Below, in pieces: positions 4,051 through 41,490 of a DNA stretch of 64,000 bases. The stretch is from Escherichia phage ECBP1. The stretch's first letter is position 1, and each line of letters begins with the position of its first letter. The notes beneath the pieces are model-generated. The model was not told the origin of the DNA, made no database searches, and saw only the letters and a program-made list of their open reading frames with translations. Location of the stretch: the sequence record NC_018854.1, one strand, 5' to 3'. The position numbers were made by a program, and so were the translations under genes.

Positions 4051-5103
4051 ATGGCAAGCATTGACTCCTTGACTGTATGTAATTCACGTCAAGCTCGTAA
4101 CTTTATTATTCGTGCCCTGAAAGCAGGTAACGTACCATTCCTGACTTCATCACCTGGCATGGGTAAATCTGCAATCATTCGTTCTATTGCAGAAGAATTT
4201 GGTATGAAGTTGATAGATCATCGTCTGTCTACTTCTGCCCCAGAAGATCTTTCTGGTCTACCATTCCGTAATGGTGACCGTGCAGAGTTTATTCCATTCG
4301 CTGATTTATTCCCTATTGAAGGGGATGAAGTACCAGAAGGTTATAATGGCTGGCTCCTGTTCCTTGATGAGTTCAACTCAGCTAAGAAAGAAGTAGTAGC
4401 TGCTGCATACAAACTAATTCTCGACCGTATGACTGGTCAGAAAAAACTTCATCCTAATGTGATGATTGTCTGTGCTGGTAACAAAGCTACTGACCGTGCC
4501 ATTGTTAATCCTCTGGGTACTGCAATGCAGTCTCGTGTGGTTCACTTTGAAATGGAACTTAACTTCGACATCTTTGTTGAAGATGTAATGATTCCTCAAC
4601 AATGGGATGAACGTCTGGTTGCATTTCTACATGCTAACCCAGGTTATCTGCATGACTTCGACCCAGCCCATAAGAACAAAACATTCTGTTGCCCTCGTAC
4701 TTGGGACTTTGTTAACAAAGACCTTAAGAATCAGCCGGAAGGTGCTCTTCCTGATGAAGATTCTATCTACTATGCAGGTCACGTTACTGCTGGTAAGGCT
4801 ACAGAATTTGTTCAGTTTACCCAGGTATATAATCGTATGATTACGATTGAGAAGGTAGTCAAAGACCCTATGGGTTGTGCACTACCAGAAGATAACAACC
4901 TGTGTTGGGCTACCGTTAACCATCTAGCTAACAAAACTACTGAAGAGAACTTCGCTGATGTTCTTCAGTACATCGAACGCTTTAAAACGTTCACCCATAA
5001 GATTCTGTACTTCCGTACAGTAGGCAGAACATTACCAGAACTTCAGGCTACTCCTGAATGGCGTAAGGCTGCTGCTAATATCTCTCGTTACATTCACGGA
5101 TAA
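4051..5103 (+). CDS. AAA+ ATPase, MoxR-like
   Basis: Walker A SSPGMGKS, Walker B LFLDEFN; 350 aa; immediately followed by vWA partner. Confidence 0.8.
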   Translation: MASIDSLTVCNSRQARNFIIRALKAGNVPFLTSSPGMGKSAIIRSIAEEFGMKLIDHRLSTSAPEDLSGLPFRNGDRAEFIPFADLFPIEGDEVPEGYNGWLLFLDEFNSAKKEVVAAAYKLILDRMTGQKKLHPNVMIVCAGNKATDRAIVNPLGTAMQSRVVHFEMELNFDIFVEDVMIPQQWDERLVAFLHANPGYLHDFDPAHKNKTFCCPRTWDFVNKDLKNQPEGALPDEDSIYYAGHVTAGKATEFVQFTQVYNRMITIEKVVKDPMGCALPEDNNLCWATVNHLANKTTEENFADVLQYIERFKTFTHKILYFRTVGRTLPELQATPEWRKAAANISRYIHG

Positions 5104-9472: not shown

Positions 9473-9477
9473 ACCTA

Positions 9478-9504
9478 AGACCTCCTCCGGGAGGTCTTTT
9501 TTTG
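9478..9504 (+). terminator. intrinsic terminator
   Basis: AGACCTCC-tccg-GGAGGTCT followed by TTTTTTT. Confidence 0.75.
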
Positions 9505-10248: not shown

Positions 10249-10275
10249 GCAACATTTAATCTGGAGAGTAAATAA

Positions 10276-12843
10276 ATGTTAGTTGCAGATACCAACGAAA
10301 TAGCTACCTCAGCGACACTGGGTGGCAAAGAAACAATTGCCTTTGGCATCTCAGATGACTCGGCATTCTTCCATGTATTAAGTACTTCCCTGTATAACAA
10401 TCCTACTCTGGCAGTAGTTCGTGAGACTATATGTAACAGCTGGGATGCTCATATTGAGGCAGGTAAAACTGATACCCCTATTCGTATCACCATTGATACA
10501 GACAACTTTATTACCTTCCGTGATTACGGTAGTGGTATTCCAGATGAACTCATTGGTTCCATTTATGGTGTCTATGGTGCATCTACTAAGAAAGCCAACA
10601 TTAGTGTTACTGGTGGCTTTGGTCTGGGATGTAAATCTCCATTCGCTTATACAGATAGCTTCCAGGTTACTTCATGGAACCAAGGAAAGATGTCTGTATA
10701 TAACGTAGCTAAGGCTGCGATTGAGAATGATGGTAAGCCGGGTATTGTCCCTATTGTTACCAATATACCTACTGAGGAATCCGGTCTGGAAGTTAAATTC
10801 CAGTTAGGCAAACATGATTTAAATACCTTTATTCATTACATCAAGTCAATCGTATTTAACGGTGAGATTAAAGCTGAGCTTAGTATCCCTAAACTCGTTA
10901 AAACAGAAGAAGGTAATAGTATTCAACAAGGTGACTACACTTTACTGAATACGCTGGGCATGTCATTTGAACCTGGTTCATATGATATGTCTGATAGATG
11001 GTATCAGGGCTATATGGGTAGCAGTAACATATACGTTCGCTACGGTAATGTAATGTACCCAATTGTATCCAGCCCAGCTAGTGAAGAAGCTGTAGGTCTT
11101 ATCCTCAACTTCATGAATATTATTGGTGCTGGCAATTTAGTAGTTCAGGCTGCACCAGACACCTTAGCTATTGCTCCTAGTCGAGAAACACTGTCTAACC
11201 AGAAGTTAACCGACGATGGTATTACTACTCTATGCGTAGATTTAGTAGACCGTATGGAGAAAGAGATTAAGGCTAAGATTCCTGAAGCCATTAAGCAGGT
11301 TGAAGAATATGCCTCTAAATCCTCTACTCGCTTTTGGGAATATCCATCTTTCTTGGGTGCTGTTACAGATAGAACTGTTCAACGCTATATGTCTTCTAGT
11401 TTATGGACTAAACAACGTAAGCATCACATAAAGCACTGGCGTAACTTATCCAATAAGGCGTTATTAGCTCGTCCTGAATATGCAGGTCTTAAGAAGCTGT
11501 ATGGTAAGGCTATGCATGCTCTTAAGGATACTCGTGAGGAAAGTACATACTCCCCATTCTCAGAATTAGTATATCGCCATCTGCATTTACCTCGGCTTGC
11601 TGCTTTAAAAACCTCTGGTATTAAGTGGTCTGGTTACATAATGAATCAAGGCAACCGTGTTGACTTGGTAAAAGGTAAACTTACTGACTACTTTAGGATA
11701 TACAATAACTCTCACCAAAGTATTGGCATATTTACTACCAAGAACGTTGTAGTTACCCGACGTTTATCTGACTGTGCAGACTCTTTCTCATACTTCCCTG
11801 AATACAATCGAGGTGACCTGGAGCGTACAGCTTTTGTTCATGTCGTTGGTCCTAAGAAAGGTGCAGCAGAGGAAGCTGTAGCTAAGTTCACTGCTATGGG
11901 TTATCGGGTGATTGACCTTACTCAATATAATGAGTGGGACAAACCAACTAACTTCCGCAGGGAACAAGCTAAGATAGCTGCTGAGAAACGAGCCAAGACA
12001 ATAGCTGCCAATAAAACCAAAGCAGGTGGTAAAACCAATGCTCTGATTTCATTGAATGCAGTTCTTGGTGCTACCCAGGTACGTAATAAAAATGGGGATT
12101 GGGAACCCAGGCCGTATATTCAGAAAGAATTTGCTGACCCAAGTCGTCATGAGAAATATGGTTTCGTTGAGATAGAACAGCCTAAGTACTACGTACTAGC
12201 CAATCAGGTTGGTTCTGGTAGTCCTGTAACTGCTCGAATTGGAACCATGTGGAAATGGTATGAGTTGCCTGATGAGATGAAAGCAGAGACTGTTGTCTGT
12301 CGTAATCAAATCGAAGCTAACAAGGCCAAACGACGAGGTGCTATCCACATTGATGATGTTCGCTTTAGTGAATTGATGTCTGTTATTACCAGCAAAGGCT
12401 TCAAGAAATATGTTACTGAACATCGCATCGGTATTCTTGAATACGTAGGACTGGATGACAGGGAATACTGGGAAATTCTAGACATACTGGGTCTAACCTT
12501 CAAACCCTTACAGAATCTGATTTTCAAACCAGAGTATGAATGGGCATATGACTTTTTACGAAATCGACCACACGACAACAAAGAAAAACTTGTTGAAATG
12601 GGTTGTATTAAGTCAGTTGATGACTTAGAGCCATATGTAAAACTGGTTAATCCCCGTAACCATAAGTACTTTAAAGTACTTAATGATTACAAAGAATTAT
12701 TCAGTTATAGCTGGAATAAAAATGACATCCTACAGACGCTGGACTTAGGTAGTTTGGTCAAACACCTTAAGAAGAATCCAGAGGATATTCCTGGGTTTAA
12801 GTCCCTCTACCGTAATCGTCTAAATAAACTGAAAGGTAACTAA
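10276..12843 (+). CDS. rIIA: rIIA-like protein with N-terminal GHKL (histidine kinase/HSP90-type) ATPase fold
   Basis: GHKL boxes: 'ETICNSWDAH' (N box), 'RDYGSGIP' (G1), 'GGFGLG' (G2); 855 aa; followed by rIIB-sized partner as in T4/N4. Confidence 0.65.
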   Translation: MLVADTNEIATSATLGGKETIAFGISDDSAFFHVLSTSLYNNPTLAVVRETICNSWDAHIEAGKTDTPIRITIDTDNFITFRDYGSGIPDELIGSIYGVYGASTKKANISVTGGFGLGCKSPFAYTDSFQVTSWNQGKMSVYNVAKAAIENDGKPGIVPIVTNIPTEESGLEVKFQLGKHDLNTFIHYIKSIVFNGEIKAELSIPKLVKTEEGNSIQQGDYTLLNTLGMSFEPGSYDMSDRWYQGYMGSSNIYVRYGNVMYPIVSSPASEEAVGLILNFMNIIGAGNLVVQAAPDTLAIAPSRETLSNQKLTDDGITTLCVDLVDRMEKEIKAKIPEAIKQVEEYASKSSTRFWEYPSFLGAVTDRTVQRYMSSSLWTKQRKHHIKHWRNLSNKALLARPEYAGLKKLYGKAMHALKDTREESTYSPFSELVYRHLHLPRLAALKTSGIKWSGYIMNQGNRVDLVKGKLTDYFRIYNNSHQSIGIFTTKNVVVTRRLSDCADSFSYFPEYNRGDLERTAFVHVVGPKKGAAEEAVAKFTAMGYRVIDLTQYNEWDKPTNFRREQAKIAAEKRAKTIAANKTKAGGKTNALISLNAVLGATQVRNKNGDWEPRPYIQKEFADPSRHEKYGFVEIEQPKYYVLANQVGSGSPVTARIGTMWKWYELPDEMKAETVVCRNQIEANKAKRRGAIHIDDVRFSELMSVITSKGFKKYVTEHRIGILEYVGLDDREYWEILDILGLTFKPLQNLIFKPEYEWAYDFLRNRPHDNKEKLVEMGCIKSVDDLEPYVKLVNPRNHKYFKVLNDYKELFSYSWNKNDILQTLDLGSLVKHLKKNPEDIPGFKSLYRNRLNKLKGN

Positions 12844-12847
12844 TCTG

Positions 12848-14896
12848 ATGAAAATCGAACTGATTTCTATCATCGCACTGGCAGTTGACAGTCGTAACCT
12901 TACATTGTGGAAGCCCGATGGCTCCACGATTGTATATCCTCAGAGCGACCCACGGGTTGCTCGCATTGTATCTGAAGCTCAAACTAAAGGTCTGGGAACT
13001 ACCAAAGACCAAATAGAAGTAAACATCGCACCAGAAGTAAACCTGCGTACTGAATATCTGGAAGCAGAGAAGAACACTAACGGATTCGTCCGTTTCTTCA
13101 AGGTAGCTAAAGCTAAACTCAAAGAGTTCTTTCAGGATGGTACAGGTGTTCCACCTGACCGTATTATTTCTGATATTAAGCTGGGTAATCCTACTAAGAC
13201 ACTGGTGTCTAAAGCTATGGATACCTTTCTGGCTGTACAGGCCAATGAACCAGAAGTAACTGTAACAGATGGTTGTTATGACAAACGTGACAATCTGATG
13301 TGGGTTACTGGCTGGGACAAAGACCATAACCATCCTGCACTGGTTCGTTTTATTAACGACGTAATGGGTTGTGGGTATGAATATACTAACACCATGCTCA
13401 AACAGGAATGGCCTGTTGCAGTTCGTGCAGTATCTGATGATGAAATGGGTGAGTTTGCTAAACAAGCCGAACACATCAAAGGGGTTCATGTTGTATTCAC
13501 CAGTCGTAAACATACCCCACCACCTTACATTGAAGTAACTAAAGTTACGAACCAGGATAAGCTGGCTGCTGCCTCGGAGAAACTAGCTGCATTGGGTGCT
13601 ATTAGTACTGATGACGCTAACTTCCACACCGATGTGAAGGAAGATGAAGTGGTTGTTGCTGTTACCAACAATGGGGTTATCCCCGGAGTTGAGAACCTGC
13701 AACGTCACTTACGTCAGTCTGCCAAGCTGAAAGACTACAAGGGCTTTACTAAGTTCCTTGAACGTCTGGCTCCGGTTATTAAAGACCGTCTGCACTCAGT
13801 AGAAGACCTGATGAAGTTCATGGAAACTGCTGAACTGCCTATTGCCGATGATGGTTCAATCCTGTTCCTCAAACGCCTTAAGTCTAGTGGTATAGAAAAC
13901 GGTAAACGTGTATTCGTTGACTGTCACTCGGGTAACATTCGTCAATGGGTAGGCTGTAAAGTGCAGGTACGCGAAGACCTGGTAGACCCTGACCGTCGTC
14001 AGGATTGCTCTAACGGTCTGCACGTAGCATCCATGAGCTATCTACGTGGCTTCGGTGGTAATGTGACCATCCTTGGTAAAGTAGCACCGGAAGATGTATT
14101 TGCTGTTCCTCAGTACAGCACCAATAAAATGCGTGTATCTGCATATCATATTATTGCTGAACTACCGGAAGAGGAACGTAATAATGTTAATAATGGTATC
14201 TACCTGTCTAAGACAGAAGTAGGTAAGAAATTGCTTAATGATGCCATCGTTGGGAACCATAGCTCACCTACCACACTTATTATGGTTGGGGGTCATTATG
14301 GTACTAACCTCAAATACACTAATCTCACATCTGGTTCTGTAGAACAATTCCGTACAGTTGCTAGCAAAGAAGCACTGAACATGGAAGAGTCACTGAATGA
14401 AGCTGTAGCTGCTGAACCAGTGAAGGCTACTGACCTTAAACCTGTTATTAAGAAGGCTCCTACTGTGAAAGAACAAATCCAGGAACTGGTCAAAGAGTTC
14501 CTTACTGCAACAACCCCAGAAGATAAGTTAGCTGCTGCTGACCTTCTGGTAGAACTGCGTGGTAAAGCTCGTAAGCCTTGGGCTGCATTCGATGTGGGTA
14601 ATGATGTAGTAGCTAAGATTGCTGATGTACGTGCTACCTATACAGCTAAGCCTATTGGTAAACCTAAAGCTGTTAAGCAGGATAAGACAGTTAAACCTAC
14701 TAAATCTAAGCCTGCTATTAATAGTACTAATGCCAACATCATCAGAGGTTATCTAGCAGATAGTGGTATGTCTGATTATCAGAAAGCCCACTCCATTCAT
14801 GACCTGAAACGTGCAGCTAAGAAGTCTTATGCTGCTATGGGTCTTACTGAAGAAGAGTGCAAAGCCATTGATAAGCTGAAGCACCACCTTAAGTAA
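12848..14896 (+). CDS. rIIB: rIIB-like protein (by position and size; weak sequence support)
   Basis: 682-aa ORF immediately downstream of rIIA-like gene; Lys-rich C-terminus. Confidence 0.4.
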   Translation: MKIELISIIALAVDSRNLTLWKPDGSTIVYPQSDPRVARIVSEAQTKGLGTTKDQIEVNIAPEVNLRTEYLEAEKNTNGFVRFFKVAKAKLKEFFQDGTGVPPDRIISDIKLGNPTKTLVSKAMDTFLAVQANEPEVTVTDGCYDKRDNLMWVTGWDKDHNHPALVRFINDVMGCGYEYTNTMLKQEWPVAVRAVSDDEMGEFAKQAEHIKGVHVVFTSRKHTPPPYIEVTKVTNQDKLAAASEKLAALGAISTDDANFHTDVKEDEVVVAVTNNGVIPGVENLQRHLRQSAKLKDYKGFTKFLERLAPVIKDRLHSVEDLMKFMETAELPIADDGSILFLKRLKSSGIENGKRVFVDCHSGNIRQWVGCKVQVREDLVDPDRRQDCSNGLHVASMSYLRGFGGNVTILGKVAPEDVFAVPQYSTNKMRVSAYHIIAELPEEERNNVNNGIYLSKTEVGKKLLNDAIVGNHSSPTTLIMVGGHYGTNLKYTNLTSGSVEQFRTVASKEALNMEESLNEAVAAEPVKATDLKPVIKKAPTVKEQIQELVKEFLTATTPEDKLAAADLLVELRGKARKPWAAFDVGNDVVAKIADVRATYTAKPIGKPKAVKQDKTVKPTKSKPAINSTNANIIRGYLADSGMSDYQKAHSIHDLKRAAKKSYAAMGLTEEECKAIDKLKHHLK

Positions 14897-14958
14897 TAGC
14901 CTGTTCAAATAGCCTCACTTATAATAAAGTGAGGCTATCTTTGAAGAGGAAATAAGCT

Positions 14959-15354: not shown

Positions 15355-15739
15355 GAATATTAGTACCCAGATTGGTTGTCATCTGGAAGAAGTATGTGAA
15401 ATGTTAGATGAGTTGACCCCATCCTGTGAGGATAGTATGCAAGTATTAGCCGATGCACAGGCTGCTTTGAGTAAATTATCTCTGCTGATGAAAACAAATC
15501 ACATGGCTATTTTCCCAGCGAATAGCAATCGCTTAGCTTTGCTGGATTCACTGGCAGACCAGATTGTTACAGCAACTGGAGTCGGTACTTTTCTTGGGAT
15601 GAATGTCCCTGGAGCATTGGCTGAAGTCAATCGCTCAAACTATTCTAAGTTTGAAGATGGAGAACCTGTCTTCAATGGGAACATGAAAGTTATGAAAGGG
15701 AAAGACTACACTCCCCCGGATTTAACCCCTTACATCTAA
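15278..15739 (+). CDS. MazG-like nucleotide pyrophosphohydrolase (start uncertain)
   Basis: 'HLEEVCEMLDEL' EExxE-type metal motif; C-terminal 'NRSNYSKF...KGKDYTPPDL'; frame overlaps upstream gene by about 77 nt. Confidence 0.4.
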   Translation: MTSSSVCTLANTEAWFRKAVANPTSKNISTQIGCHLEEVCEMLDELTPSCEDSMQVLADAQAALSKLSLLMKTNHMAIFPANSNRLALLDSLADQIVTATGVGTFLGMNVPGALAEVNRSNYSKFEDGEPVFNGNMKVMKGKDYTPPDLTPYI

Positions 15740-15759
15740 CCCTCTACGGAGGGTTTTTT
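15740..15759 (+). terminator. intrinsic terminator
   Basis: CCCTC-tacg-GAGGG followed by TTTTTT. Confidence 0.7.
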
Positions 15760-15772
15760 ACTGGAGATTTTA

Positions 15773-17083
15773 ATGTTTTCCAAACCTACCAAAGCCCCAC
15801 TGAACAAGGGGCAAGAAGCGGTTGCGAAGGAGTTCTTCGACTTCCTGCTCGACCCTAATGCTACCGAATTCAATATTAGTGGCCCAGGGGGAACTGGCAA
15901 GACATTCCTGATGTCGCACCTCATTGATGACACTATGCCTGCATATATGGAAACTTGCTCCCTTATGGGAACCAAGCCCCTATATAACGAAGTTGTTATG
16001 ACTGCGACCACGAACAAGGCTGCTGAAGTTCTGGCTCAAGCTACTGGGCGTCCAACATCTACCTATCATTCCTTCCAGGGATTGATTGTTAAGAATGACT
16101 TTAAGACTGGTGAGGCTAATGTCGTACCGTCCAAATCATTCAATATTAAGAAGAACAAAATCATCTTCGTAGACGAAGCATCCATGATTGACCGTCAGTT
16201 ACTTAAGTATGCTCGTGAAGGTACTCACCAGTGCAAACTGGTATTTGTAGGCGATGCTTCTCAGCTTCTGCCTGTTAAAGAGAATAAGTCTCCAGTGTAT
16301 GCAGGTAATATCCCAACACACTATCTGACTGAACAGATGCGTACCGATGCACCGGAACTTAAAGCATTGCACCAGCAATTGCGTGATACGGTAGAAGGTA
16401 AGACAGGCTTCCTGCCTATTAAATGTATTCCAGGCATCATTGATTGGGTACAGGGGGAAGAGATGGAGAAACTGGTTCTCAGTCACTTCACTCAACCTAC
16501 TAATAGCCGTATTGTTGCTTACACAAATGACCAGGTTATTAATTACAATAACTACATTCGTGAAGCTAATGGCTACGTGGGTGAGTACTCCATTGGTGAA
16601 CAGCTAGTCTCTAACTCTGCTATTCGCTTAGGTGTGGATAATCGTCTGTCTATCGAGCAAGACGTAAAACTCATTGACCAGGATAGCAGTACTCGCATGA
16701 TTCCAGTTACAGATGACCTGGAACTGGAAGTTCGTGATAGTACTCTGGACCTTGGTTATGGTGGTATTGTAAGTGAAGTCCCAGTACCTACCGACCCAGA
16801 ATACTTCAACCGTTTGGTTAAGTGGCTAGGTAAAGAGAAGAACTGGGAACCCTACTTCCGTCTTAAAGAAACCATTCCAGACCTACGTGCTACTCATGCA
16901 TGTACTGTCCATAAATCACAAGGCTCTACTTACGACACAATCTTCATTGATGCAGATGACCTCTCAAGCTGTCGCCAACCTGATATGGTTGCCCGTCTGC
17001 TTTACGTCGCTGTGTCTCGTGCCCGTAAGCGAGTAGTGTTTTATGGCAATCTTGCCAGTAAGTATGGTGGTCTAACTTTCTAA
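15773..17083 (+). CDS. SF1 DNA helicase, Dda/RecD-like
   Basis: Walker A 'GPGGTGKT', Walker B 'IIFVDEASMID', C-terminal 'VHKSQGSTYD' RecD/Dda motif. Confidence 0.8.
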   Translation: MFSKPTKAPLNKGQEAVAKEFFDFLLDPNATEFNISGPGGTGKTFLMSHLIDDTMPAYMETCSLMGTKPLYNEVVMTATTNKAAEVLAQATGRPTSTYHSFQGLIVKNDFKTGEANVVPSKSFNIKKNKIIFVDEASMIDRQLLKYAREGTHQCKLVFVGDASQLLPVKENKSPVYAGNIPTHYLTEQMRTDAPELKALHQQLRDTVEGKTGFLPIKCIPGIIDWVQGEEMEKLVLSHFTQPTNSRIVAYTNDQVINYNNYIREANGYVGEYSIGEQLVSNSAIRLGVDNRLSIEQDVKLIDQDSSTRMIPVTDDLELEVRDSTLDLGYGGIVSEVPVPTDPEYFNRLVKWLGKEKNWEPYFRLKETIPDLRATHACTVHKSQGSTYDTIFIDADDLSSCRQPDMVARLLYVAVSRARKRVVFYGNLASKYGGLTF

Positions 17084-17093
17084 GGGAGGATAT

Positions 17094-17624
17094 ATGCCTC
17101 AGATTGGTTCAGCGACTATTGGTCAGGTTGCCAATAGCAGTGAGATAGTCAAACACCTGTTCTTAGCAGAACTGGTTCGTCTTGATAGTGTGTTAAACGG
17201 TATCATTGATAAGAACGACCGTATCAATGGTATTGATATATCGGCTGGATTTCTTTATCAAGGGGAGTTCTATCAGCGTTCTAATGCTGCCAGACCTCCA
17301 ACCTACGGTGAACGATTAACACTTAATCCAGAACTTTGGCCTGCAATGGACAAGTATCTGAAAGCCTCCAGTCGCCTGATTATGGAAGTACACCTTGTGA
17401 ACCAGACTGTATATCGCCTGGTTCGTGGTTGTATGTCCTATCAGGATGTACGTGATGCTTTACCTGAATGCCTGGTAGCCCAGGACCAGACTGGTAAGTA
17501 CAAGGAACTGCCACGTACTCGTGAAGCAGCCTGGACACTTGCTGGTGATCCTATGGCAATAAAACAGTATGAGAAGATTCTTCCCTCTATTGAGTACTAT
17601 GCAGCTTCCCATCTGATTTTCTAA
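17094..17624 (+). CDS. hypothetical protein
   Basis: 176-aa ORF between helicase and polymerase, RBS GGAGG upstream. Confidence 0.5.
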   Translation: MPQIGSATIGQVANSSEIVKHLFLAELVRLDSVLNGIIDKNDRINGIDISAGFLYQGEFYQRSNAARPPTYGERLTLNPELWPAMDKYLKASSRLIMEVHLVNQTVYRLVRGCMSYQDVRDALPECLVAQDQTGKYKELPRTREAAWTLAGDPMAIKQYEKILPSIEYYAASHLIF

Positions 17625-17633
17625 GGTAAGGCT

Positions 17634-20213
17634 ATGCGTTACATCACCTCTCAGGATACGGGTAAGTATCCTATTGCTATCCTCGGTCATCAAATCCGAA
17701 GGGAGGAGATGATTAAAACCTACCTGCTGCCTAATGACCTAAGCATGGAAGATTTCATCTTCATCGAACTTCATTCTGCCCCCGGCAAGAAGAAGACTCC
17801 TGCAAGGGAGATTAAGGAGTTCATACAGCAGGAGTTGCAACAAGTACTGGACGATGCAGAGACTCAATACATTATCTGTACCGATTCTGACTACTTCAAA
17901 ATACTGACTAAAGAAGCAAAAGCAGAGGCTAACCTCGGCTACGTTTGTGATTCAGTATGGGGTAAGCAGAAGGTTATCTATGCACCTAGCTACAGACAGG
18001 TCTTTTATGACCCTCCTGTAGTGAAATCTAAGATTGCTCAGGGTATGGATGCATTACTTAACCACATACGTGGGCAGTATGCAGAACCAGGTCAGGGAAT
18101 CATTGAGTTTGAGGCTTATCCAGATACCCCAGAGAAGATTAAAGCCTGGCTAGACCAGTTGCTTGAGATGAATAAGCCATTGGCTATAGACATCGAGGCA
18201 TTCGGTTTAAAGCACTATAACGCAGGTATAGGAACAATTACGTTCTGTTGGAGTAAGACACAAGGCATAGCCTTTAATGTGGACTACGAGCCGATTCCTG
18301 GAGCTACTGAAGCACCATACGGGCGTATCAACAGAAATGATGTTGTTCGAAATCTTCTTCGTGAGTTCTTCATTAAGTACACTCAACGGCAGATGTATCA
18401 CAACATTAGCTACGACGTGTATGTGCTTATCTATCAATTATTCATGGATAACCTGATTGATACAGAAGGCTTACTGCATGGTATGGAAATCATGCTACGC
18501 AACTGGGACTGTACTAAGTTAATCACCTACCTGGCTACTAACAGTTGTGCTGGTAATCACCTTAGTCTAAAAGACCAGGCTCAGGAGTATGCTGGTAACT
18601 ATGCTCAGGATGACATTAAAGACATTCGTCTTATTCCTAATGAGCAACTCTTACGTTACAACCTCATTGATGGTTTATGTACCTGGTACACCTATGAGAA
18701 ACACTGGGATACTCTCATTGCTGATGACCAACTAGATGTTTACAACAACATCTTTAAGCCAGCCTGTGAAGATATTATCCAGATGCAGTTAACTGGTATG
18801 CCCATGAATATGGATACCGTTAACCAAGTAGCTAAGGAGATGGAAACTGACAGGAACCAGGCTCTGAAAACTATTCGTGAGTCTAAGCTCATGAAGAACT
18901 TTACCCTGATGCTTCGTCAGGAATGGGTAGATGATAAGAATGCTAAGCTCAAGAAGAAGCAGGTAACACTTGCTGACTGTGATATCGAGTTTAATCCTAA
19001 CTCCGGTCCACAACTACAGAAGCTATTATTTGACTATATTGGCTTACCGGTTCTTGGTCTTACTAAGAGCAAGCAACCTGCTACTGACGGTGACACTATT
19101 AAAGCACTGCGTACACACACGCAGAGCGAAGATGTTAAGGAACTGCTCAATGCACTTATCGACTATAAGCTCGTGGATAAGATTATCACTTCATTCATCC
19201 CGGCTTTCCGTAATGCACAACCGGGACCAGATGGATGGCACTACCTATTCGGCAACCTCAATCTGGGGGGAACGGTTTCTGGTAGATTATCTGCCTCTGA
19301 GCCAAACCTGCAAACTATTCCGTCTGGCTCCAAATACGCCAAGAAGATTAAGAAATGCTTCGAAGCACCCCCAGGTTGGATCTTTTGTGGACTGGACTTT
19401 GCAAGCCTTGAGGACCGTATCTCAGCTTTAACTACTAAAGACCCTAATAAATTGCGTGTGTATACTGACGGGTTCGATGGGCACTCCCTCAGAGCTAAAT
19501 TTTATTTCGGCGAGCAAATGCCGGATATAGATGATTCTGTGGAAAGCATCAACTCTATTCAGAAAAAATATAAAGCCTTACGTAGTGAATCGAAAGCTCC
19601 CACTTTCTTATTGACTTACGGTGGGACTTATATGGGCTTGATGAAAAACTGCGGTTTCCCGGAAGGGAAGGCTAAGTTAATCGAATCCAGATACCATGAA
19701 ATGTATACGGTTAGTGATGCCTGGGTTCAAGCTAAGCTAGACGATGCTGCCAAAACTGGTTATGTTACTGCCGCATTCGGTTTGAGAGTGCGTACTCCTT
19801 TACTGGCTCAAGTATTACGTGGGACATGTAAGACTCCGTATGAAGCAGAAGCAGAAGGCAGAACTGCTGGTAATGCTTTAGGGCAAAGCTGGTGTCTACT
19901 AAATAACCGTGCTGGTTCAGAGTTTATGCGTAAAGTCAGAGCCAGTGAGTTCAGGTTAGATATTCGTCCTAGTATTCATATTCATGATGCTCAGTACTTC
20001 ATGATTCGTGACAACATGGATACTTTGCAATTCACGAACAAGCACTTGGTTGAAGCCGTTAACTGGCAAGACCATCCTGATATTGCTCACCCAGAAGTTG
20101 GTTTGGGTGGGGAACTATCCTTGTTTTACCCAACGTGGGCTAACGAGATTGAAATTCCAAATCACGCTACCCCAGAAGAAGTTCATCAAATAATTCAAAA
20201 GGCATTCGCATGA
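17634..20213 (+). CDS. family-A DNA polymerase with 3'-5' exonuclease domain
   Basis: Exo motif 'AIDIEAFGL'; pol motifs 'DFASLEDRISA' (A), 'KAPTFLLTYGG' (B), 'HIHDAQYF' (C); 859 aa. Confidence 0.9.
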   Translation: MRYITSQDTGKYPIAILGHQIRREEMIKTYLLPNDLSMEDFIFIELHSAPGKKKTPAREIKEFIQQELQQVLDDAETQYIICTDSDYFKILTKEAKAEANLGYVCDSVWGKQKVIYAPSYRQVFYDPPVVKSKIAQGMDALLNHIRGQYAEPGQGIIEFEAYPDTPEKIKAWLDQLLEMNKPLAIDIEAFGLKHYNAGIGTITFCWSKTQGIAFNVDYEPIPGATEAPYGRINRNDVVRNLLREFFIKYTQRQMYHNISYDVYVLIYQLFMDNLIDTEGLLHGMEIMLRNWDCTKLITYLATNSCAGNHLSLKDQAQEYAGNYAQDDIKDIRLIPNEQLLRYNLIDGLCTWYTYEKHWDTLIADDQLDVYNNIFKPACEDIIQMQLTGMPMNMDTVNQVAKEMETDRNQALKTIRESKLMKNFTLMLRQEWVDDKNAKLKKKQVTLADCDIEFNPNSGPQLQKLLFDYIGLPVLGLTKSKQPATDGDTIKALRTHTQSEDVKELLNALIDYKLVDKIITSFIPAFRNAQPGPDGWHYLFGNLNLGGTVSGRLSASEPNLQTIPSGSKYAKKIKKCFEAPPGWIFCGLDFASLEDRISALTTKDPNKLRVYTDGFDGHSLRAKFYFGEQMPDIDDSVESINSIQKKYKALRSESKAPTFLLTYGGTYMGLMKNCGFPEGKAKLIESRYHEMYTVSDAWVQAKLDDAAKTGYVTAAFGLRVRTPLLAQVLRGTCKTPYEAEAEGRTAGNALGQSWCLLNNRAGSEFMRKVRASEFRLDIRPSIHIHDAQYFMIRDNMDTLQFTNKHLVEAVNWQDHPDIAHPEVGLGGELSLFYPTWANEIEIPNHATPEEVHQIIQKAFA

Positions 20214-27737: not shown

Positions 27738-28155
27738 TATCGTGAAGGGTTCTGTTAGAATCCTTTGAGATAGGAACTCCTATCATAACCTTTCTTATCT
27801 TAATCTTTGCCGTATGGCACTGACGCTAGGGTTTATGCCCATCCGTCAGGTAGACTATTTTAAGAATGGGTTATCACAGAAAATGTAAAGCAACATTCGG
27901 GTTAATCAATGGCCTCTCCCTATAGGGGCCATTTCTGAATGATAGGCTATATCCCAAAGGTTAGTATCTTTGGGATAAGGCTTCAGATCCCTTATCAAAC
28001 TAACCTCTCAATGTTGAGCATTTTAATCACATAAGCCCCTATATGGGCTGGGTTAAATGTCGGATAGCATAGCTACCTACAGCATCGAATTGTTAGGTCT
28101 TACATGCAACATAGGGTATAAAGGGAGGACTCGTCCCCTCCCTCCTATTATAATG

Positions 28156-28225
28156 GTCGAGGTAGCACGTAGGCATGTGCAGATGGTCGCTACTTCTCTC
28201 GCTGGTTCGAATCCAGCCCCCGACC
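28156..28225 (+). tRNA. tRNA-like element, probably degenerate tRNA
   Basis: 7-bp acceptor (one A-C mismatch), U8-A9, D-arm GCAC/GTGC, canonical T-arm GCTGG-TTCGAAT-CCAGC; anticodon stem pairs poorly. Confidence 0.3.
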
Positions 28226-39700: not shown

Positions 39701-41427
39701 TGAATAGCTTCTACACGGTTAGTGGAACCAGAAACAGCTTCACGGATTGCTGGGTTAGTTTGTTCCAATTCTACCGGGTCAAACTTCATTGCTTGAGTTA
39801 AGTCAGCAGCATACTGGGTAGCAGCAGCTTTCTCTTCTGGAGAAATATCCATTGCATCCACTGCTTCCTGAACAGTTGCTTGAGCTTGTTCTGCCTGAGC
39901 AGTAGCTTCTTGTGCAGCAGCGTTAACCGTAGCATCAGATACGGGGGATGCTTGTTCATTACGCTTAGCAACTTCTTCCCCACGTTGAACCAGGATGTTA
40001 GTAATAGGAGAAGCTACTTTTGCTAGTGCCTTACCAGCCAAAGAAGCACCAGCCAGGGTAGTACGTACAGCAGGACCAACGGCAGCACCAGCAGCCTTAA
40101 CAGTTGCACCAGGAGCTTGAGCAACTCCAGCAGAACCGAAGCCATACAATGCACCAAGACCGGTTTGTTCACCCACACCTTTAAGCAAATCACGCTTAGC
40201 ATCTACATTACCTTGAATTGCCTTGTTCTGTGCAAACTGACTTGTACCAGACTGGATACCTTCTTCTACAGTCTCACGCAGCATGTTAGAACCAGCACCA
40301 GCCAGTGAACCTACCTTAAGTGGATTAAGTTCAAACTTGGATACCAGTGGACCAGTAAGAGCAGCAACCGGAGCAGTTAAGCCAGCAGCAGTAATACCCG
40401 TTTCAGATGCAGTCTGGCGACGTGCTTCTTCAGGAGATAAACCGTCTTTAATATGCTGTTGGTATACAGGAGATTTAGCAGCCAATTCACTGAATGGCAT
40501 TTCCATAATTTCATTAGCAGTCTGTTGGTATGCACCACCAGCTTCCATACCACCAATTGCTATAGCAGGTGCAGCAACACGACCAGTAGCTAATGCAGTA
40601 CGTGCAGGACGTGAACCTAACTCAGCAGCTAAGGTAATGCCTTTAACAGCTTTATCACCACCTACCATTACTTTACCGAGTGCAGATACACCACGAATCA
40701 ATGGACCGCCGGTAAAGAGAGAACCAACACCCTCAGCCAGACCATCAGTAGCAGCCATGCCATTGGACAAGGTGTTAGCAACAGAATCGTAAGCATCTCG
40801 ACCAATGCGAGACAGGGAAGCAACGAGATCACTTTCTCCTTTAGCAATATCCTGCTTATAGAGTTTCTCGTTTTCCTGTGCAGATATTACGTTCTGGTTC
40901 TGTACTACATTACGACGAGCATTTAATGCATCAGACTGTAGGTTGTGTACACCTTTATTCAACCAGTCAAGACCGGAAGCAATGGTTGCCCCGGCATTAT
41001 CATTGACCAAGCCTGTACCAAGAGCAGCAATGCCCCCAAGAGTATTAGCAACACCAAGACCAACACCAGAAAGGGTATCACCAAGTGCTTCACCATATGT
41101 ACGACTCTTAGTTAAATCACGACGAACAGCATTAGCTGCATTGACACGAGCATTGAGAATGTCCATTCCTTGCTCATTGCCATACTTGTTTATGATTTCA
41201 AGAGGAGAGGCATTAGTAAAATCTGCCTGAAAAGAACCTGGGTCAAATGCACCAGCACCTAAGTTACCAGCACGGCCTGCCTGTAATTGGTAAGCGTTCT
41301 GTGGGGTTAGTTGGAAGGGGCTTTGCCCTTGTTCAGCTTGTTTCCGAGAGGTTGCAGTAGAGACATCGACTTGCTTAGCAGTAGTGATGCTGTCTGCGAA
41401 ACCTGCCAGACGGTCAAATGTTGACAT
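30715..41427 (-). CDS. giant virion-encapsidated RNA polymerase (N4 gp50-like vRNAP)
   Basis: About 3570 aa single ORF; central region has T7-like RNAP-type motifs ('YVEADGVTNGPINAMVLM', 'KNPLTITIYGSGARGIAGK'); start taken at ATG 41427 (track start 41445 is TTG). Confidence 0.8.
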   Translation of the reverse strand: MSTFDRLAGFADSITTAKQVDVSTATSRKQAEQGQSPFQLTPQNAYQLQAGRAGNLGAGAFDPGSFQADFTNASPLEIINKYGNEQGMDILNARVNAANAVRRDLTKSRTYGEALGDTLSGVGLGVANTLGGIAALGTGLVNDNAGATIASGLDWLNKGVHNLQSDALNARRNVVQNQNVISAQENEKLYKQDIAKGESDLVASLSRIGRDAYDSVANTLSNGMAATDGLAEGVGSLFTGGPLIRGVSALGKVMVGGDKAVKGITLAAELGSRPARTALATGRVAAPAIAIGGMEAGGAYQQTANEIMEMPFSELAAKSPVYQQHIKDGLSPEEARRQTASETGITAAGLTAPVAALTGPLVSKFELNPLKVGSLAGAGSNMLRETVEEGIQSGTSQFAQNKAIQGNVDAKRDLLKGVGEQTGLGALYGFGSAGVAQAPGATVKAAGAAVGPAVRTTLAGASLAGKALAKVASPITNILVQRGEEVAKRNEQASPVSDATVNAAAQEATAQAEQAQATVQEAVDAMDISPEEKAAATQYAADLTQAMKFDPVELEQTNPAIREAVSGSTNRVEAIQKMADLVNTAEDPNVQMEAAIQMYDNIMSMDSFINRDPGALANLEQDSPAAAIVDQFSGLMANVQNTPKVLRAFRAIHSMIQEQAEAGKLKATEEANQAQANNIAMAADVSPEVLDADSVNMVLKHASEGKITLGNRQRAALQSAAALLQGAREFDAKAEELGLRPQDIVSKQIKTDESRSNEGQYSALQHAKRIRSAYNSGNFDLASAYLSDFMKFAQHMQNKVGALNEHLISGNADKNKSVHYQALSPSREWVRSRTGLGVNPYDTKSVKFAQQVALEAKTVADIANALATAYPELNVSHVKVTSLDSRLNKPAAQVVKEFRQGGLDATQSQQTNEPVNQVDETPALVQEDTTTVQPKDKPVVENKTAPTKETSPKAEEVSTTESERDAYVKENTISQETLNKNGDRRESPWLFADGTVVGSNGDHISLSDVFGHDGYRDMSLDTGAIRSTFYKGSEQPFVSLQLFDNQKLTAEQFNTVQSFVEANNALIQIGVDTSERNTNNVEKEEVSLAQLKADYTVGGKPLSEMETVFPVYNNDKTPNQFLKAFSLPEEPKSRTIGSESPLTDVKKALSSAARFEAFTQKENNALTSDVIKRYQDLFEFGETLKTTLSDRLAKFLANKNVGKRFAEGTEANRWVGGKLLNIVEKDGDTFKFNDQLLETAVLAGLQWRLTATQNAAVKDMKDVAAITGVEASLLPEGILADFENAQTLVEATNSLAQKIESYWGLNRNPNAPLGYTKGIPMAMATEILSSLIEMGEVKESMLDVSEIDPESNKTVGLYTIEKLDDNDAINKFPTAIEETVLLEPVEKLYLGDDIPSVAQTQLRNPAVKNTPEQKAALKAEQATEFRVHMPMVNFYEALGCDNILELMGAGALNPELLNVNTAKSLEGKNLSVSMAYDSLFGVINQIKEQENGLDTPIHYGYNMTRVGRMQMLGKNNPQSSKLVREAILPTFSTIDLSNENSQTFSDFQLGLAQALGIKVHKMSREVMSDELTKALEGKLKPAVDMMVEFDKSGHLPADAVDILKTSLGSDKSFVALMALMEYARYLNSDDRTNFNTPLYVEADGVTNGPINAMVLMTGGKFTPDWIKNTAKGGLFFGKAGKTMNEHHSHEDSVDLYEASTNGLQQALNELRSTYRNNVPVMNQMNHLQKLMDLFIKDFNLNEDGTLDLKRGIAKNPLTITIYGSGARGIAGKMVSAITDVIYERFSDVLQARAADPSISPAMAMFGKEAASEADAQAMLDTFLTSMEALTGNVPVMRKGELSIQQVDGALTGKLDPQKFTVSGNALKNLQENMLHLFVEPMRTGIRNTVGEGLMYSTENLQKATQIQSLVLQDMFQQRVQEKLAEKEKDPTWKKGDFLTQKELNEIQESLSPLAPMIETGSQTFYIAGSENTDVANQVLATNLDDRMRVPMSIYAPSQAGVAGIPFMTIGTGDGMMMQTLSTMKGAPKNTLKIFDGMNIGINDITDASRKANEAVYTSWQGNPIKNVYDSYAKFMKNVDFSKLSDKTKQAIAKSALEYDQREGATDDLLRVGAEQIERNLRNIALGVDIRHKVMNQVQVTVDQMAAVGAPYVNDGKISLEGLTVDQQVAKLNELFDAELNKRRDAVRAAKAEPAKEVPAMEQVGRVLKSGVRLLSNTAITKLAKEMSPEQQAVLKEVQKSLAAKDYKVVYGTPSQLDAYAIEKNITRPAPEDIEAAEAGNAYGWTNFDDKTIYLVTPSLETLVHELVHASTFESVLAHYEGTPNEAVQNIEDLMNQFRTLDVKNEPPAVREAYADALNTINGHLSNGFIEPAMAKAAALNEYMAWGLTNRELIGKQKKTTALKAMVQAVYEAIKRLVFGRKKAPANADDMFSGLLFNSAVVMRGQAPTAAVAKDTTLFHNKAYGDNTRLEELGKTFDKLITDYIGSEPVQQVIRKGKFSDAVVNATKVTRDVQAHGFTMNMQEQRLFTNIVAALATEAAINPAAMARAQEYYTHVTKNLTVEAFMADPDSTNPADRYYAQQKFDTIMGANNIEFDAQGRSSLLPTFVGLAMVSEEVRKVLADIPVMKADKKSGNTVDAMLTNIGTAAMASLNARVAGDTKATNVQEGMDALAQTIMQTSLNAESFYDSVATPTGNAIDRANQYLVDSIDALSTRALEGAREIAANTKNPLVKGAVHAAQLVAAIATEKNGAIVAEGVMAAMNQGKVWQPFHDLVNDIIGRTKSNASVYDLIKAVRAQVQADRQQFREHLPTTIASKFSRKLTNEEWKAMHTGMGKTDLAVLRDTMSLDEIRDLLTDQKIVDREVNKLEADLQKQAGRNWPLINRKSKQLAQYMIKGTVGNNLLRNATAISRLLGERKTTRSVVDVAQLDKLITLYALEAMNKTDREMLSSLAQTEIEGMDFATSYLVGQRKDEMAKAKSDSRATLNQYKGYIPSENKQGVNLIVAEDSQFADLIEKSYVRLGTYQGSSANRGPARSYYFAPVQAQAPFSQGILQNVRNTAGGVDLGTGFTMGTMVAGRITDKPSVDRITKALARGERGNEPLLPVYDANGNVVAYEQSIDPNMLKHIEGENHLARAIGVWRGRQVEEAKAQRFNDMLIENLHSMYENDIKMSASNKSQYVNLLGSKLDPVTADALKLMNSETRQKAESLFGPGELWVRRDMLNDALGYRAASVGDAWSGNSRWSPETLDTFKKAMLGVFGNRAYKYVMGGENLVQNLVKEAKTLIVVKSVVVPAVNFLANLYQMVARGVPVKNIAKSISQKTAEINQYLKSRLRQVDAEAELRAATNPNQIRKLKAEIQSISDSHKRLSIWPLLEAGEFSSIADAGIGRDDILITEGKLHEYMEKLADKLPKSVRNAGRYALITKDTALFQGIQKTVEYSDFIAKAIIYDELTQRKGKTREEALGRVTEEFINYDRLPGRFRGYMESVGLMWFYNFKIRSAKVAVSMIRNNPVHAAMAMLAPTPTMFGNVGLPIQDNIFSIAAQGNLGYSFGFGQGLRAHNLNPWLNLTN

Positions 41428-41490
41428 AGCATGATTCCTGTTCAAACTTATATCGTATAAGAAGATTCACTGTACAGTAAGTGAATGTAA

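Follow-up and report, generated by a model that had tools for sequence, protein, structure and literature searches.

Escherichia phage ECBP1 (NC_018854.1), of which we analysed a stretch of 64,000 nucleotides (hereafter the window), carries two adjacent genes between positions 10276 and 14896. Both start with ATG and lie on the plus strand, ORF1 (10276..12843) encoding 855 amino acids and ORF2 (12848..14896) encoding 682. The phage is a Gamaleyavirus, a coliphage of the G7C/Bp4-type N4-like podophages, and the window is 96.2% identical at the DNA level to PD38 and Bp4. Our comparisons assign the region to an rIIA/rIIB operon, orthologous to gp33/gp34 of N4 and more distantly to rIIA/rIIB of T4, with the following features:

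10263..10268, plus strand: Shine-Dalgarno sequence GGAGAG of rIIA, read from the sequence, 7 nt before the ATG at 10276.
10276..12843, plus strand: rIIA gene, 855 aa, orthologue of N4 gp33 (from phrog_2979, T4 rIIA and N4 gp33).
10333..10875, plus strand: GHKL (Bergerat-fold) ATP-binding domain of rIIA, about residues 20-200 (from the N, G1 and G2 boxes).
10873..11325, plus strand: second domain of the rIIA ATPase module, possibly transducer-like, about residues 200-350 (from invariant residues).
11326..12840, plus strand: fast-evolving C-terminal half of rIIA, residues 351-855 (from its low identity).
12848..14896, plus strand: rIIB gene, 682 aa, orthologue of N4 gp34 (from phrog_2886, T4 rIIB, N4 gp34 and BFVD).
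12848..13138, plus strand: N-terminal domain of long (N4-type) rIIB, residues 1-97 (from conservation and pLDDT).
13292..13504, plus strand: degenerate insert resembling the C-terminal domain (CTD) of bL12 (L7/L12), rIIB residues 149-219 (from homology via intermediates).
13643..14167, plus strand: rIIB core common to T4 rIIB, residues 266-440 (from the homologue and T4 alignments).
14459..14632, plus strand: C-terminal basic helical module of rIIB, copy 1, residues 538-595 (from internal duplication).
14723..14881, plus strand: C-terminal basic helical module of rIIB, copy 2, residues 626-678 (from hhalign), hypervariable within the genus.
14904..14945, plus strand: stable hairpin just past the rIIB stop codon (MFE -20.3 kcal/mol, z -6.3).

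A preliminary description of this DNA had reported adjacent genes for proteins of 855 and 682 aa, had read them as an rIIA/rIIB-like pair larger than that of T4, and had proposed profile searches as a check. Both ORFs are present as reported, and the searches recover homology to the rIIA and rIIB families. ORF1 matches phrog_2979 ('RIIA') across its entire length (E 4e-299) and the T4-type family phrog_612 (E 1.6e-68), and BLASTP aligns its residues 17-351 with T4 rIIA at 28% identity (E 7e-26). ORF2 matches phrog_2886 ('RIIB', E 4.8e-214) and, over residues 215-442, T4 rIIB at 26% identity (BLASTP, E 7e-19), while a fold search of BFVD returns rIIB proteins across phages. The size claim also holds, at 855 versus 725 aa for rIIA and 682 versus 312 aa for rIIB. 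In N4, gp33 (RIIA, 841 aa) and gp34 (RIIB, 696 aa), at 15460-17985 and 17985-20075 of NC_008720, agree with the pair in gene order, genome position, size and full-length collinear homology, with identities of 39.6% end to end for rIIA and 50.3% for rIIB. N4 differs in being an Enquatrovirus rather than a Gamaleyavirus, and the C-terminal half of its rIIA is only 17-38% identical to ours. Among gamaleyaviruses, gp33/gp34 of Bp4, PD38, St11Ph5 and G7C are essentially the same genes as in the window, with allelic differences only, concentrated in the last ~90 residues of rIIB; rIIB is 99.1% identical in amino acids to that of Bp4 and wholly identical to one from an IMG/VR contig. The finding is already known, and the gene pair is an ordinary one for G7C/Bp4-type N4-like phages: those 91-96% identical to the window have the same two genes labelled rIIA/rIIB, and the rIIA annotation is present in PD38, Bp4 and St11Ph5.

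Only 4 nt separate the two genes on the same strand, which makes translational coupling likely. The pairing is kept well beyond this phage: of 80 related loci, 76 have rIIA directly followed by rIIB on one strand, the gap mostly measuring -4 to +13 nt, and in the other four one partner ORF is missing. Natural RIIA-RIIB fusions also exist, in the RB43 protein (Q56C47, 1049 aa) and phrog_609, the two ends of which match rIIA and rIIB. The RB43 fusion joins in one polypeptide an rIIA N-terminus and an rIIB core that the window encodes in two genes. Such fusions support a physical partnership of rIIA and rIIB, and the two proteins may well form a complex. The pair is located in a replication block, with thymidylate synthase on one side and a Dda-like helicase and DNA polymerase on the other. 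The hairpin that follows rIIB, equalled in folding by none of 200 shuffled sequences, is possibly a terminator or an mRNA-stabilising element; our terminator scan did not call it because a proper T-run is absent.

rIIA begins with a two-domain ATPase module. The preliminary description credited it with all GHKL boxes, and this stands for N, G1 and G2, while G3 escapes assignment when only the sequence is used. Residues 47-157 score 34.6 bits with Pfam HATPase_c_3 (gathering score 25). Across an alignment of 58 diverse homologues, E50, N54 and D57 of the N box are invariant, as are the G2 box (G113-G114-F-G116-L-G118) with K120; in the G1 box (D83-x-G85-x-G87), D83 and G85 are invariant and G87 is kept in at least 90%. 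The ATP-binding site is intact, and the protein would be an active ATPase. Invariant residues also mark the second domain (Y256, Y261, P262 and P301-S-R303-E304), which may complete the ATP site as a transducer would, and both domains are shared with T4 rIIA. With the GHL/MORC-type ATPases (MORC2/3, Hsp90/TRAP1/GRP94, MutL, topo II/ParE), identity is only 11-18%, and rIIA lacks the topoisomerase TOPRIM, the MutL endonuclease, the Hsp90 C-terminal dimerisation domain and the CW zinc finger; it is not a member of the MORC, Hsp90, MutL or topo II/ParE families. The C-terminal half, residues 351-855, is basic (pI ~9-10) and combines long helices with two small alpha/beta domains before ending in helices. 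Its mean identity across homologues is 12-16% and it cannot be aligned to T4 rIIA, in agreement with Iyer et al., who describe the region after the ATPase module as highly variable. Hydropathy profiles gave no convincing transmembrane helix in rIIA or rIIB, the highest 19-residue values being 1.2 in rIIB and 1.79 in rIIA, the latter within the folded ATPase module. The classical description as membrane proteins is therefore not visible in their sequences, a result that concerns spanning helices, since peripheral membrane binding cannot be judged in this way.

The enlarged partner had been described as devoid of any recognisable motif, which is true only of a plain Pfam scan. Profile, structural and comparative analysis resolve rIIB into five parts: an N-domain, a degenerate bL12-CTD insert, the rIIB core, a small extension and a duplicated basic helical tail. 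The N-domain (residues 1-97), without a Pfam match, is present in 89 of 90 aligned homologues, is modelled with pLDDT >90, and has D14, G25, Q32-G33-D34, R36, F83, F84 and K88 near-invariant. T4 rIIB has in its place an HTH-like region; T4 residues 1-90 have no counterpart in the window's rIIB, and this region is a T4-type trait rather than part of the family core. The core, made of a helical part and a beta-rich domain, is found in all 90 homologues (45-56% identity), aligns with T4 rIIB residues 95-310, and is detected in 2812 phage records. D358, G369, C387, S388, G390, L391, H392, Y398, K427, R429 and Y433 are its invariant residues, and those of the DxH...CSxGLH...K-R-Y motif (D358, C387, S388, G390, L391, H392, K427, R429, Y433) remain so among 91 sequences including T4. 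The core has no fold match in the PDB, and there is no solved structure of an rII protein.

The tail consists of two copies of one module (hhalign probability 99.1%, E 7.7e-19), with the family consensus KKxAKKSWxxLG and no Pfam match. T4 rIIB lacks this duplicated module, and its N-terminus gives no hhalign match to the repeats (probability at most 5%). Among 121 Gamaleyavirus rIIB proteins, copy 2 has a mean identity of 55%, versus 92-98% in the core, and many megablast hits end at query position 4425. Such hypervariability within a genus is consistent with an arms race.

Taken together, the pair is probably a counter-defence module of two proteins, produced along with the replication genes, which keeps resident prophages from setting off abortive infection of the RexAB type. 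RexAB-type systems depolarise the membrane. In the working that we propose, rIIA would be a GHKL clamp of the MORC/Hsp90/MutL type that uses ATP to dimerise and whose C-terminal half evolves fast, and rIIB its translationally coupled partner, a conserved core decorated with lineage-specific modules; together they would hide or alter the cue of infection, or bind the sensor, and so keep the defence silent. When RIIA or RIIB is knocked down in T4, MM02, EdH4, SUSP1 and N4, plating efficiency falls on RexAB hosts only (Adler 2025, PMC11879866). The loss-of-function plating on Rex hosts suggested by the preliminary description is thus already published for the N4 orthologues, proteins only 40-50% identical to those of the window. 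In T4, where the two genes are likewise adjacent, the pair also counters RexAB, and insertions in rIIA or rIIB are depleted on it (10.1101/2025.11.20.689424). A gasdermin/CARD system and Tmn both sense RIIB. Still, few phages in panels are affected by RexAB (PMC8594841), and Rex may therefore not be the natural target of the pair.

Alternatively, the primary role could concern how phage DNA is replicated, recombined or topologically arranged at the membrane, with the rIIA ATPase working on DNA or replisome proteins, rIIB as a DNA-binding or regulatory partner, and Rex protection as a side effect. That the pair lies in the replication block, that both proteins have basic C-terminal regions (pI ~10) and that Iyer et al. 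classify rIIB as a transcription factor all leave room for such a role. In addition, the closest folds of rIIA include the ATPase modules of topo II/ParE and MutL, the N-terminus of T4 rIIB weakly matches a DNA-binding PHROG, and the Tmn preprint calls RIIB a replisome-anchoring component. However, fold comparisons give Hsp90 and MORC scores equal to those of the topoisomerases, and the modules of N4-type rIIB contain no HTH or other DNA-binding Pfam family. Knockdown in the five phages, N4 included, has no effect on Rex-free hosts (PMC11879866), so that rIIA and rIIB are dispensable for replication itself, and we consider a primary DNA role unlikely.

The insert in rIIB suggests yet another possibility, in which the pair acts on host translation: a domain derived from the bL12 CTD would bind EF-Tu, EF-G, IF2 or ribosomes, protecting or diverting translation under abortive-infection stress. 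The insert has the beta-alpha-alpha-beta-alpha-beta fold of this domain and is homologous to it through intermediate sequences. The inserts of relatives are true bL12 CTDs: six other homologues match PF00542 at 35-59 bits (GA 25.9), and in homologue P0125 the factor-binding helices of E. coli L7/L12 are kept almost exactly (E 1.6e-12). Mizuno 2019 reported phage bL12 domains inside large polypeptides, including a 724-aa protein of the N4-like Erwinia phage Ea9-2, which is the rIIB of that phage: it is named 'RIIB lysis inhibitor' in RefSeq, adjoins rIIA, is 92.5% identical to homologue P0136 (42.6 bits), and carries its CTD, with a clear PF00542 match and factor-binding signature, at the same position as the window's rIIB. 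N4 gp34 has the insert as well (transitive HMM, E 1.4e-6), and its position is constant in all carriers. These are, however, only 35 of 230 rIIB-type proteins, and T4 rIIB has no insert, so it cannot be the core mechanism. Moreover, the copy in the window has degenerated: PF00542 does not hit segment 140-228, the insert has no PDB sequence hit, and even the nearest relative (P0121) stays below GA (14.6 bits, E 0.041). The EF-binding signature KVAxIKxxR / GLKEAKD is largely lost, with HPALVRFINDVMGCGYEYTNTMLKQ at that place when the alignment is compared by eye, and at 80% identity within the genus the insert is among the more variable folded regions of rIIB. Ribosomal_L12_N, the dimerisation and uL10-binding domain, has no match in the full rIIB or its segments, only the CTD-like domain being embedded. 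A translational role for the pair is accordingly very doubtful. By sequence, no membership of the ClpS adaptor family was found.

Finally, it is highly improbable that rIIA and rIIB directly delay holin or endolysin action, as the PHROG and RefSeq names 'RIIA/RIIB lysis inhibitor' would literally imply: the label is historical (according to the T4 record, mutants lyse rapidly only on certain lysogens, owing to prophage genes), functional data point to Rex subversion, the genes sit in the replication block and not beside lysis genes, and neither protein has a convincing membrane-spanning segment.

Returning to the counter-defence module that we favour, the long rIIB of enterobacterial N4-like phages appears to have captured its insert from the CTD of ribosomal bL12, intact in the Erwinia type and decayed here. 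Were insert and hypervariable duplicated tail functional interaction surfaces, rII counter-defence in this lineage would act partly via translational GTPases or ribosomes, or by decoying those host sensors to which RIIB is a signal; we regard this as quite improbable. As a finding, our analysis adds little, since near-identical phages already have these genes annotated and the plating test has appeared in print for the orthologues in N4. What remains of value is a map of the domains in rII proteins of the N4 type: an rIIA that is a MORC/Hsp90/MutL-like two-domain ATPase, and an rIIB composed of an N-domain, a bL12-CTD-derived insert, a universal core marked by its invariant D/H/C/H-containing motif, and a duplicated tail that is hypervariable within the genus. 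The map shows where to cut or mutate in later mechanistic work, and ties the 2019 observation of bL12 in large phage polypeptides specifically to rIIB. If insert and tail were indeed interaction surfaces, they would offer a concrete binding partner for the 70-year-old rII problem.

Profile and sequence comparisons place both genes in the rII families, as the preliminary description had proposed. The product of ORF1 matches phrog_2979 ('RIIA') across its entire length (E 4e-299) and, with its first ~390 residues, phrog_612, the family of T4 rIIA itself (E 1.6e-68); BLASTP aligns it with T4 rIIA at 28% identity across residues 17-351 (E 7e-26). ORF2 matches phrog_2886 ('RIIB', E 4.8e-214), its central part matches four further RIIB families, and it is 26% identical to T4 rIIB across residues 215-442 (BLASTP, E 7e-19). 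Since both ORFs match PHROG families and T4 proteins alike, homology to rIIA and rIIB is present and the interpretation of the pair is supported. The two genes lie exactly where they had first been placed:

10276..12843, + strand: rIIA (ORF1), 855 aa
12848..14896, + strand: rIIB (ORF2), 682 aa
14904-14945: very stable hairpin (dG -20.3 kcal/mol, z -6.3) just 3' of the rIIB stop codon

A ribosome-binding site (GGAGAG) is found 7 nt upstream of the rIIA start, and translation of the two genes is probably coupled, because rIIB starts 4 nt past the rIIA stop codon. In a terminator scan, terminator-like hairpins at 9477-9498 and 15738-15755 flank a block composed of a few small ORFs, rIIA, rIIB and two small downstream genes. 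The hairpin at 14904-14945, which lacks a proper T-run, may act as a terminator, stabilise the RNA or serve as a signal to a phage polymerase. A scan for sigma-70 promoters gave fewer sites than shuffled sequence, as expected for a phage that employs its own RNA polymerases. An antisense ORF of 238 aa (12797-13513, - strand) falls wholly inside the end of rIIA and the start of rIIB; it is most likely spurious, because strongly conserved sense-strand coding sequence covers the region.

At the DNA level, Escherichia phages PD38 and Bp4 share 96.2% identity with the 4.6-kb region, and St11Ph5, SP5M and others share 91-94%; these phages all belong to Gamaleyavirus (Schitoviridae, Enquatrovirinae), the genus of the G7C-type N4-like podophages. 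Bp4 rIIB is 99.1% identical in protein sequence, an identical rIIB is encoded on one IMG/VR contig, and related Gamaleyavirus records already name the genes rIIA(-like)/rIIB(-like) and number them gp33/gp34. In phage N4 (NC_008720), gp33 and gp34 are collinear orthologues with 39.6% and 50.3% identity. Elsewhere in the window, a 3576-aa ORF at 30715-41445 (- strand) is presumably, to judge by its length and by the taxonomy, the giant virion RNA polymerase, a hallmark of N4-like phages. ARAGORN also called three tRNAs, Ala-CGC, Cys-ACA and Ile-AAT (28155-28226, 28518-28596 and 29299-29373), of which two have a wobble A and one is 79 nt long, both unusual features; they are either peculiar tRNAs of the phage or, equally possibly, miscalls.

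The pairing of the two genes is widespread. Among 80 IMG/VR loci recovered by an rIIB profile, 76 have an rIIA homologue (786-937 aa) directly upstream on the same strand, the remaining four being devoid of one partner ORF, and the gaps between the genes are mostly -4 to +13 nt. RB43-type phages carry a natural single-chain RIIA-RIIB fusion (1049 aa in RB43, BFVD Q56C47), and phrog_609 ('RIIB', 1055 positions) matches T4 rIIA with its N-terminus and T4 rIIB with its C-terminus. These natural fusions argue that rIIA and rIIB would work together physically. Neither protein resembles defence proteins in PADLOC, where rIIB gave no match and rIIA just a weak GHKL-level match to TmtA (E 7e-4). A sequence search of the PDB found relatives for neither, and sequence prediction gave no convincing transmembrane segment in either.

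The GHKL assignment of the 855-aa protein was borne out. Pfam HATPase_c_3 matches rIIA residues 47-157 above the gathering score, and across 58 diverse homologues including T4 the N box (E50, N54, D57), the G1 box (D83, G85) and the G2 box (G113-G114-F-G116-L-G118, with K120) are invariant. A second invariant cluster appears in the same alignment (Y256, Y261, P262, P301, R303, E304, T312), and AlphaFold2 models the protein with confidence (mean pLDDT 88.1). Taken together, the Pfam match, the invariant ATP site, the second cluster and the model make rIIA resemble a GHL/MORC-type, ATP-operated clamp rather than a kinase. The rest of the protein (residues 351-855) is basic (pI 9-10) and, in the model, chiefly helical apart from two small alpha/beta domains; with 64 homologue clusters only and 12-16% identity family-wide, it is fast-evolving, in agreement with Iyer et al.

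The enlarged partner, rIIB, had been described as free of any recognisable motif. This is true for a simple Pfam scan only, as plain Pfam and NCBIfam scans gave nothing significant; otherwise, a five-part domain order can be recognised in a confident model (mean pLDDT 88.4):

Residues 1-97: N-terminal domain, conserved in 89/90 of the long rIIB proteins; T4 lacks it
Residues 149-219 (window 13292-13504): bL12 C-terminal domain (CTD)-like insert of N4-type rIIB, preceded by a disordered linker
Residues 266-440: universal core
Residues 441-495: small extension
Residues 538-595 and 626-678: basic helical module in two copies of ~55 residues each
Residues 596-682 (window 14633-14896): tail, including the second module copy

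The family is very large, with 5829 clusters at 50% identity (E up to 1e-3), and its core is found in 2812 phage records. The 120 homologues P0001-P0120 all carry the precomputed Pfam domain PF26926.1, apparently a recent Pfam family that covers rIIB. Invariant residues of the core, in 91 sequences including T4, are D358, G369, C387, S388, G390, L391, H392, Y398, P414, P421, K427, R429 and Y433, and H360 is kept in 85/91. The cluster formed by D358, H360 and C387-S-x-G-L-H392 (13919-14023) has the look of a site for metal binding or catalysis. A four-ligand zinc site (C359/H360/C387/H392) was also considered and is weakened by position 359, a Cys in just 65/91. No PDB counterpart of the core was found; a DUF7666 protein, matched weakly by fold in BFVD (E 0.05), may be connected with the 358-392 cluster.

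The insert of N4-type rIIB is lineage-specific: of the 230 rIIB-type proteins examined, 35 carry it, each at the same position. Sequence intermediates support its identity as a ribosomal bL12 CTD. In six homologues (P0125, P0126, P0132, P0135, P0136 and P0137) the equivalent segment is a clear bL12 CTD, with 35-59 bits against Pfam PF00542 (gathering score 25.9), and one of the six can be aligned with E. coli L7/L12 (E 1.6e-12), its factor-binding helices being nearly unaltered. An HMM of these six intact inserts picked up relatives of 49-50% identity (E ~3e-16) and the homologue P0121, of 63% identity (E 3.9e-6); the HMM of the following round, from which the window sequence was left out, reached residues 152-213 of our rIIB at E 1.5e-5 and N4 gp34 at 1.4e-6. 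The insert in the window gave no sequence match in Pfam or PDB, retains little of the KVAxIKxxR/GLKEAKD signature, and is among the more variable folded parts of rIIB within the genus (80% identity versus 92-98% for the core). The domain is intact in Erwinia-type and other relatives, and degenerate in Gamaleyavirus and N4. A ClpS identity was ruled out: the match is to the fold only, a fold common to the bL12 CTD, and the sequence intermediates favour bL12. This nature of the insert is partly known already, since Mizuno et al. 2019 listed a 724-aa protein of Erwinia phage Ea9-2 as containing a bL12 domain and noted such domains within large phage polypeptides, rIIB not being named. The Ea9-2 polypeptide is its rIIB.

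The two copies of the C-terminal module are clearly related (hhalign probability 99.1%, E 7.7e-19) and share the family consensus KKxAKKSWxxLG. Neither an HTH identity of the module nor homology to the N-terminal HTH of T4 rIIB is supported. In 121 Gamaleyavirus proteins, the last ~90 residues are ~55% identical, versus 90-98% elsewhere in the protein, and many megablast matches run no further than query position 4425 (of 4621). Together, these observations suggest that the tail may be mosaic or diversifying.

As to function, knockdown of RIIA or RIIB in T4, MM02, EdH4, SUSP1 and N4 reduces plating on cells that express lambda RexAB but makes no difference on Rex-free E. coli (PMC11879866). 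T4 mutants with a transposon in rIIA/rIIB become depleted when grown on RexAB hosts. The plating experiment proposed in the preliminary description has therefore been done already for the closest studied orthologues, those of N4. We consider it probable that the pair acts in counter-defence, in which an ATP-driven rIIA clamp and its rIIB partner would keep RexAB-type abortive systems from firing. Alternatively, the primary role could lie in replication or DNA transactions, Rex protection being a by-product. The basic tails fit this idea, as does the genomic context, a replication block with thymidylate synthase upstream and a Dda-like helicase, then DNA polymerase, downstream; however, the lack of phenotype on Rex-free hosts makes it unlikely. 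Still harder to sustain is a role directed at translation through the bL12-like domain: since the domain is missing from most rIIB proteins and decayed in this one, such a role is improbable as the core mechanism. Literal lysis inhibition is scarcely credible, the label being a historical misnomer.

The rII pair was known before and is nothing unusual in N4-like phages, and our additions are descriptive and mildly new: a domain map, the explicit attribution of the 'phage bL12 domain' to rIIB, and the hypervariable duplicated tail. Besides its probable part in counter-defence, RIIB is also a liability to the phage as a trigger of defences, since a gasdermin/CARD system is triggered by T6 RIIB and Tmn directly by T2 RIIB. 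A mosaic rIIB tail, we infer, would be the expected product of an arms race with sensors.
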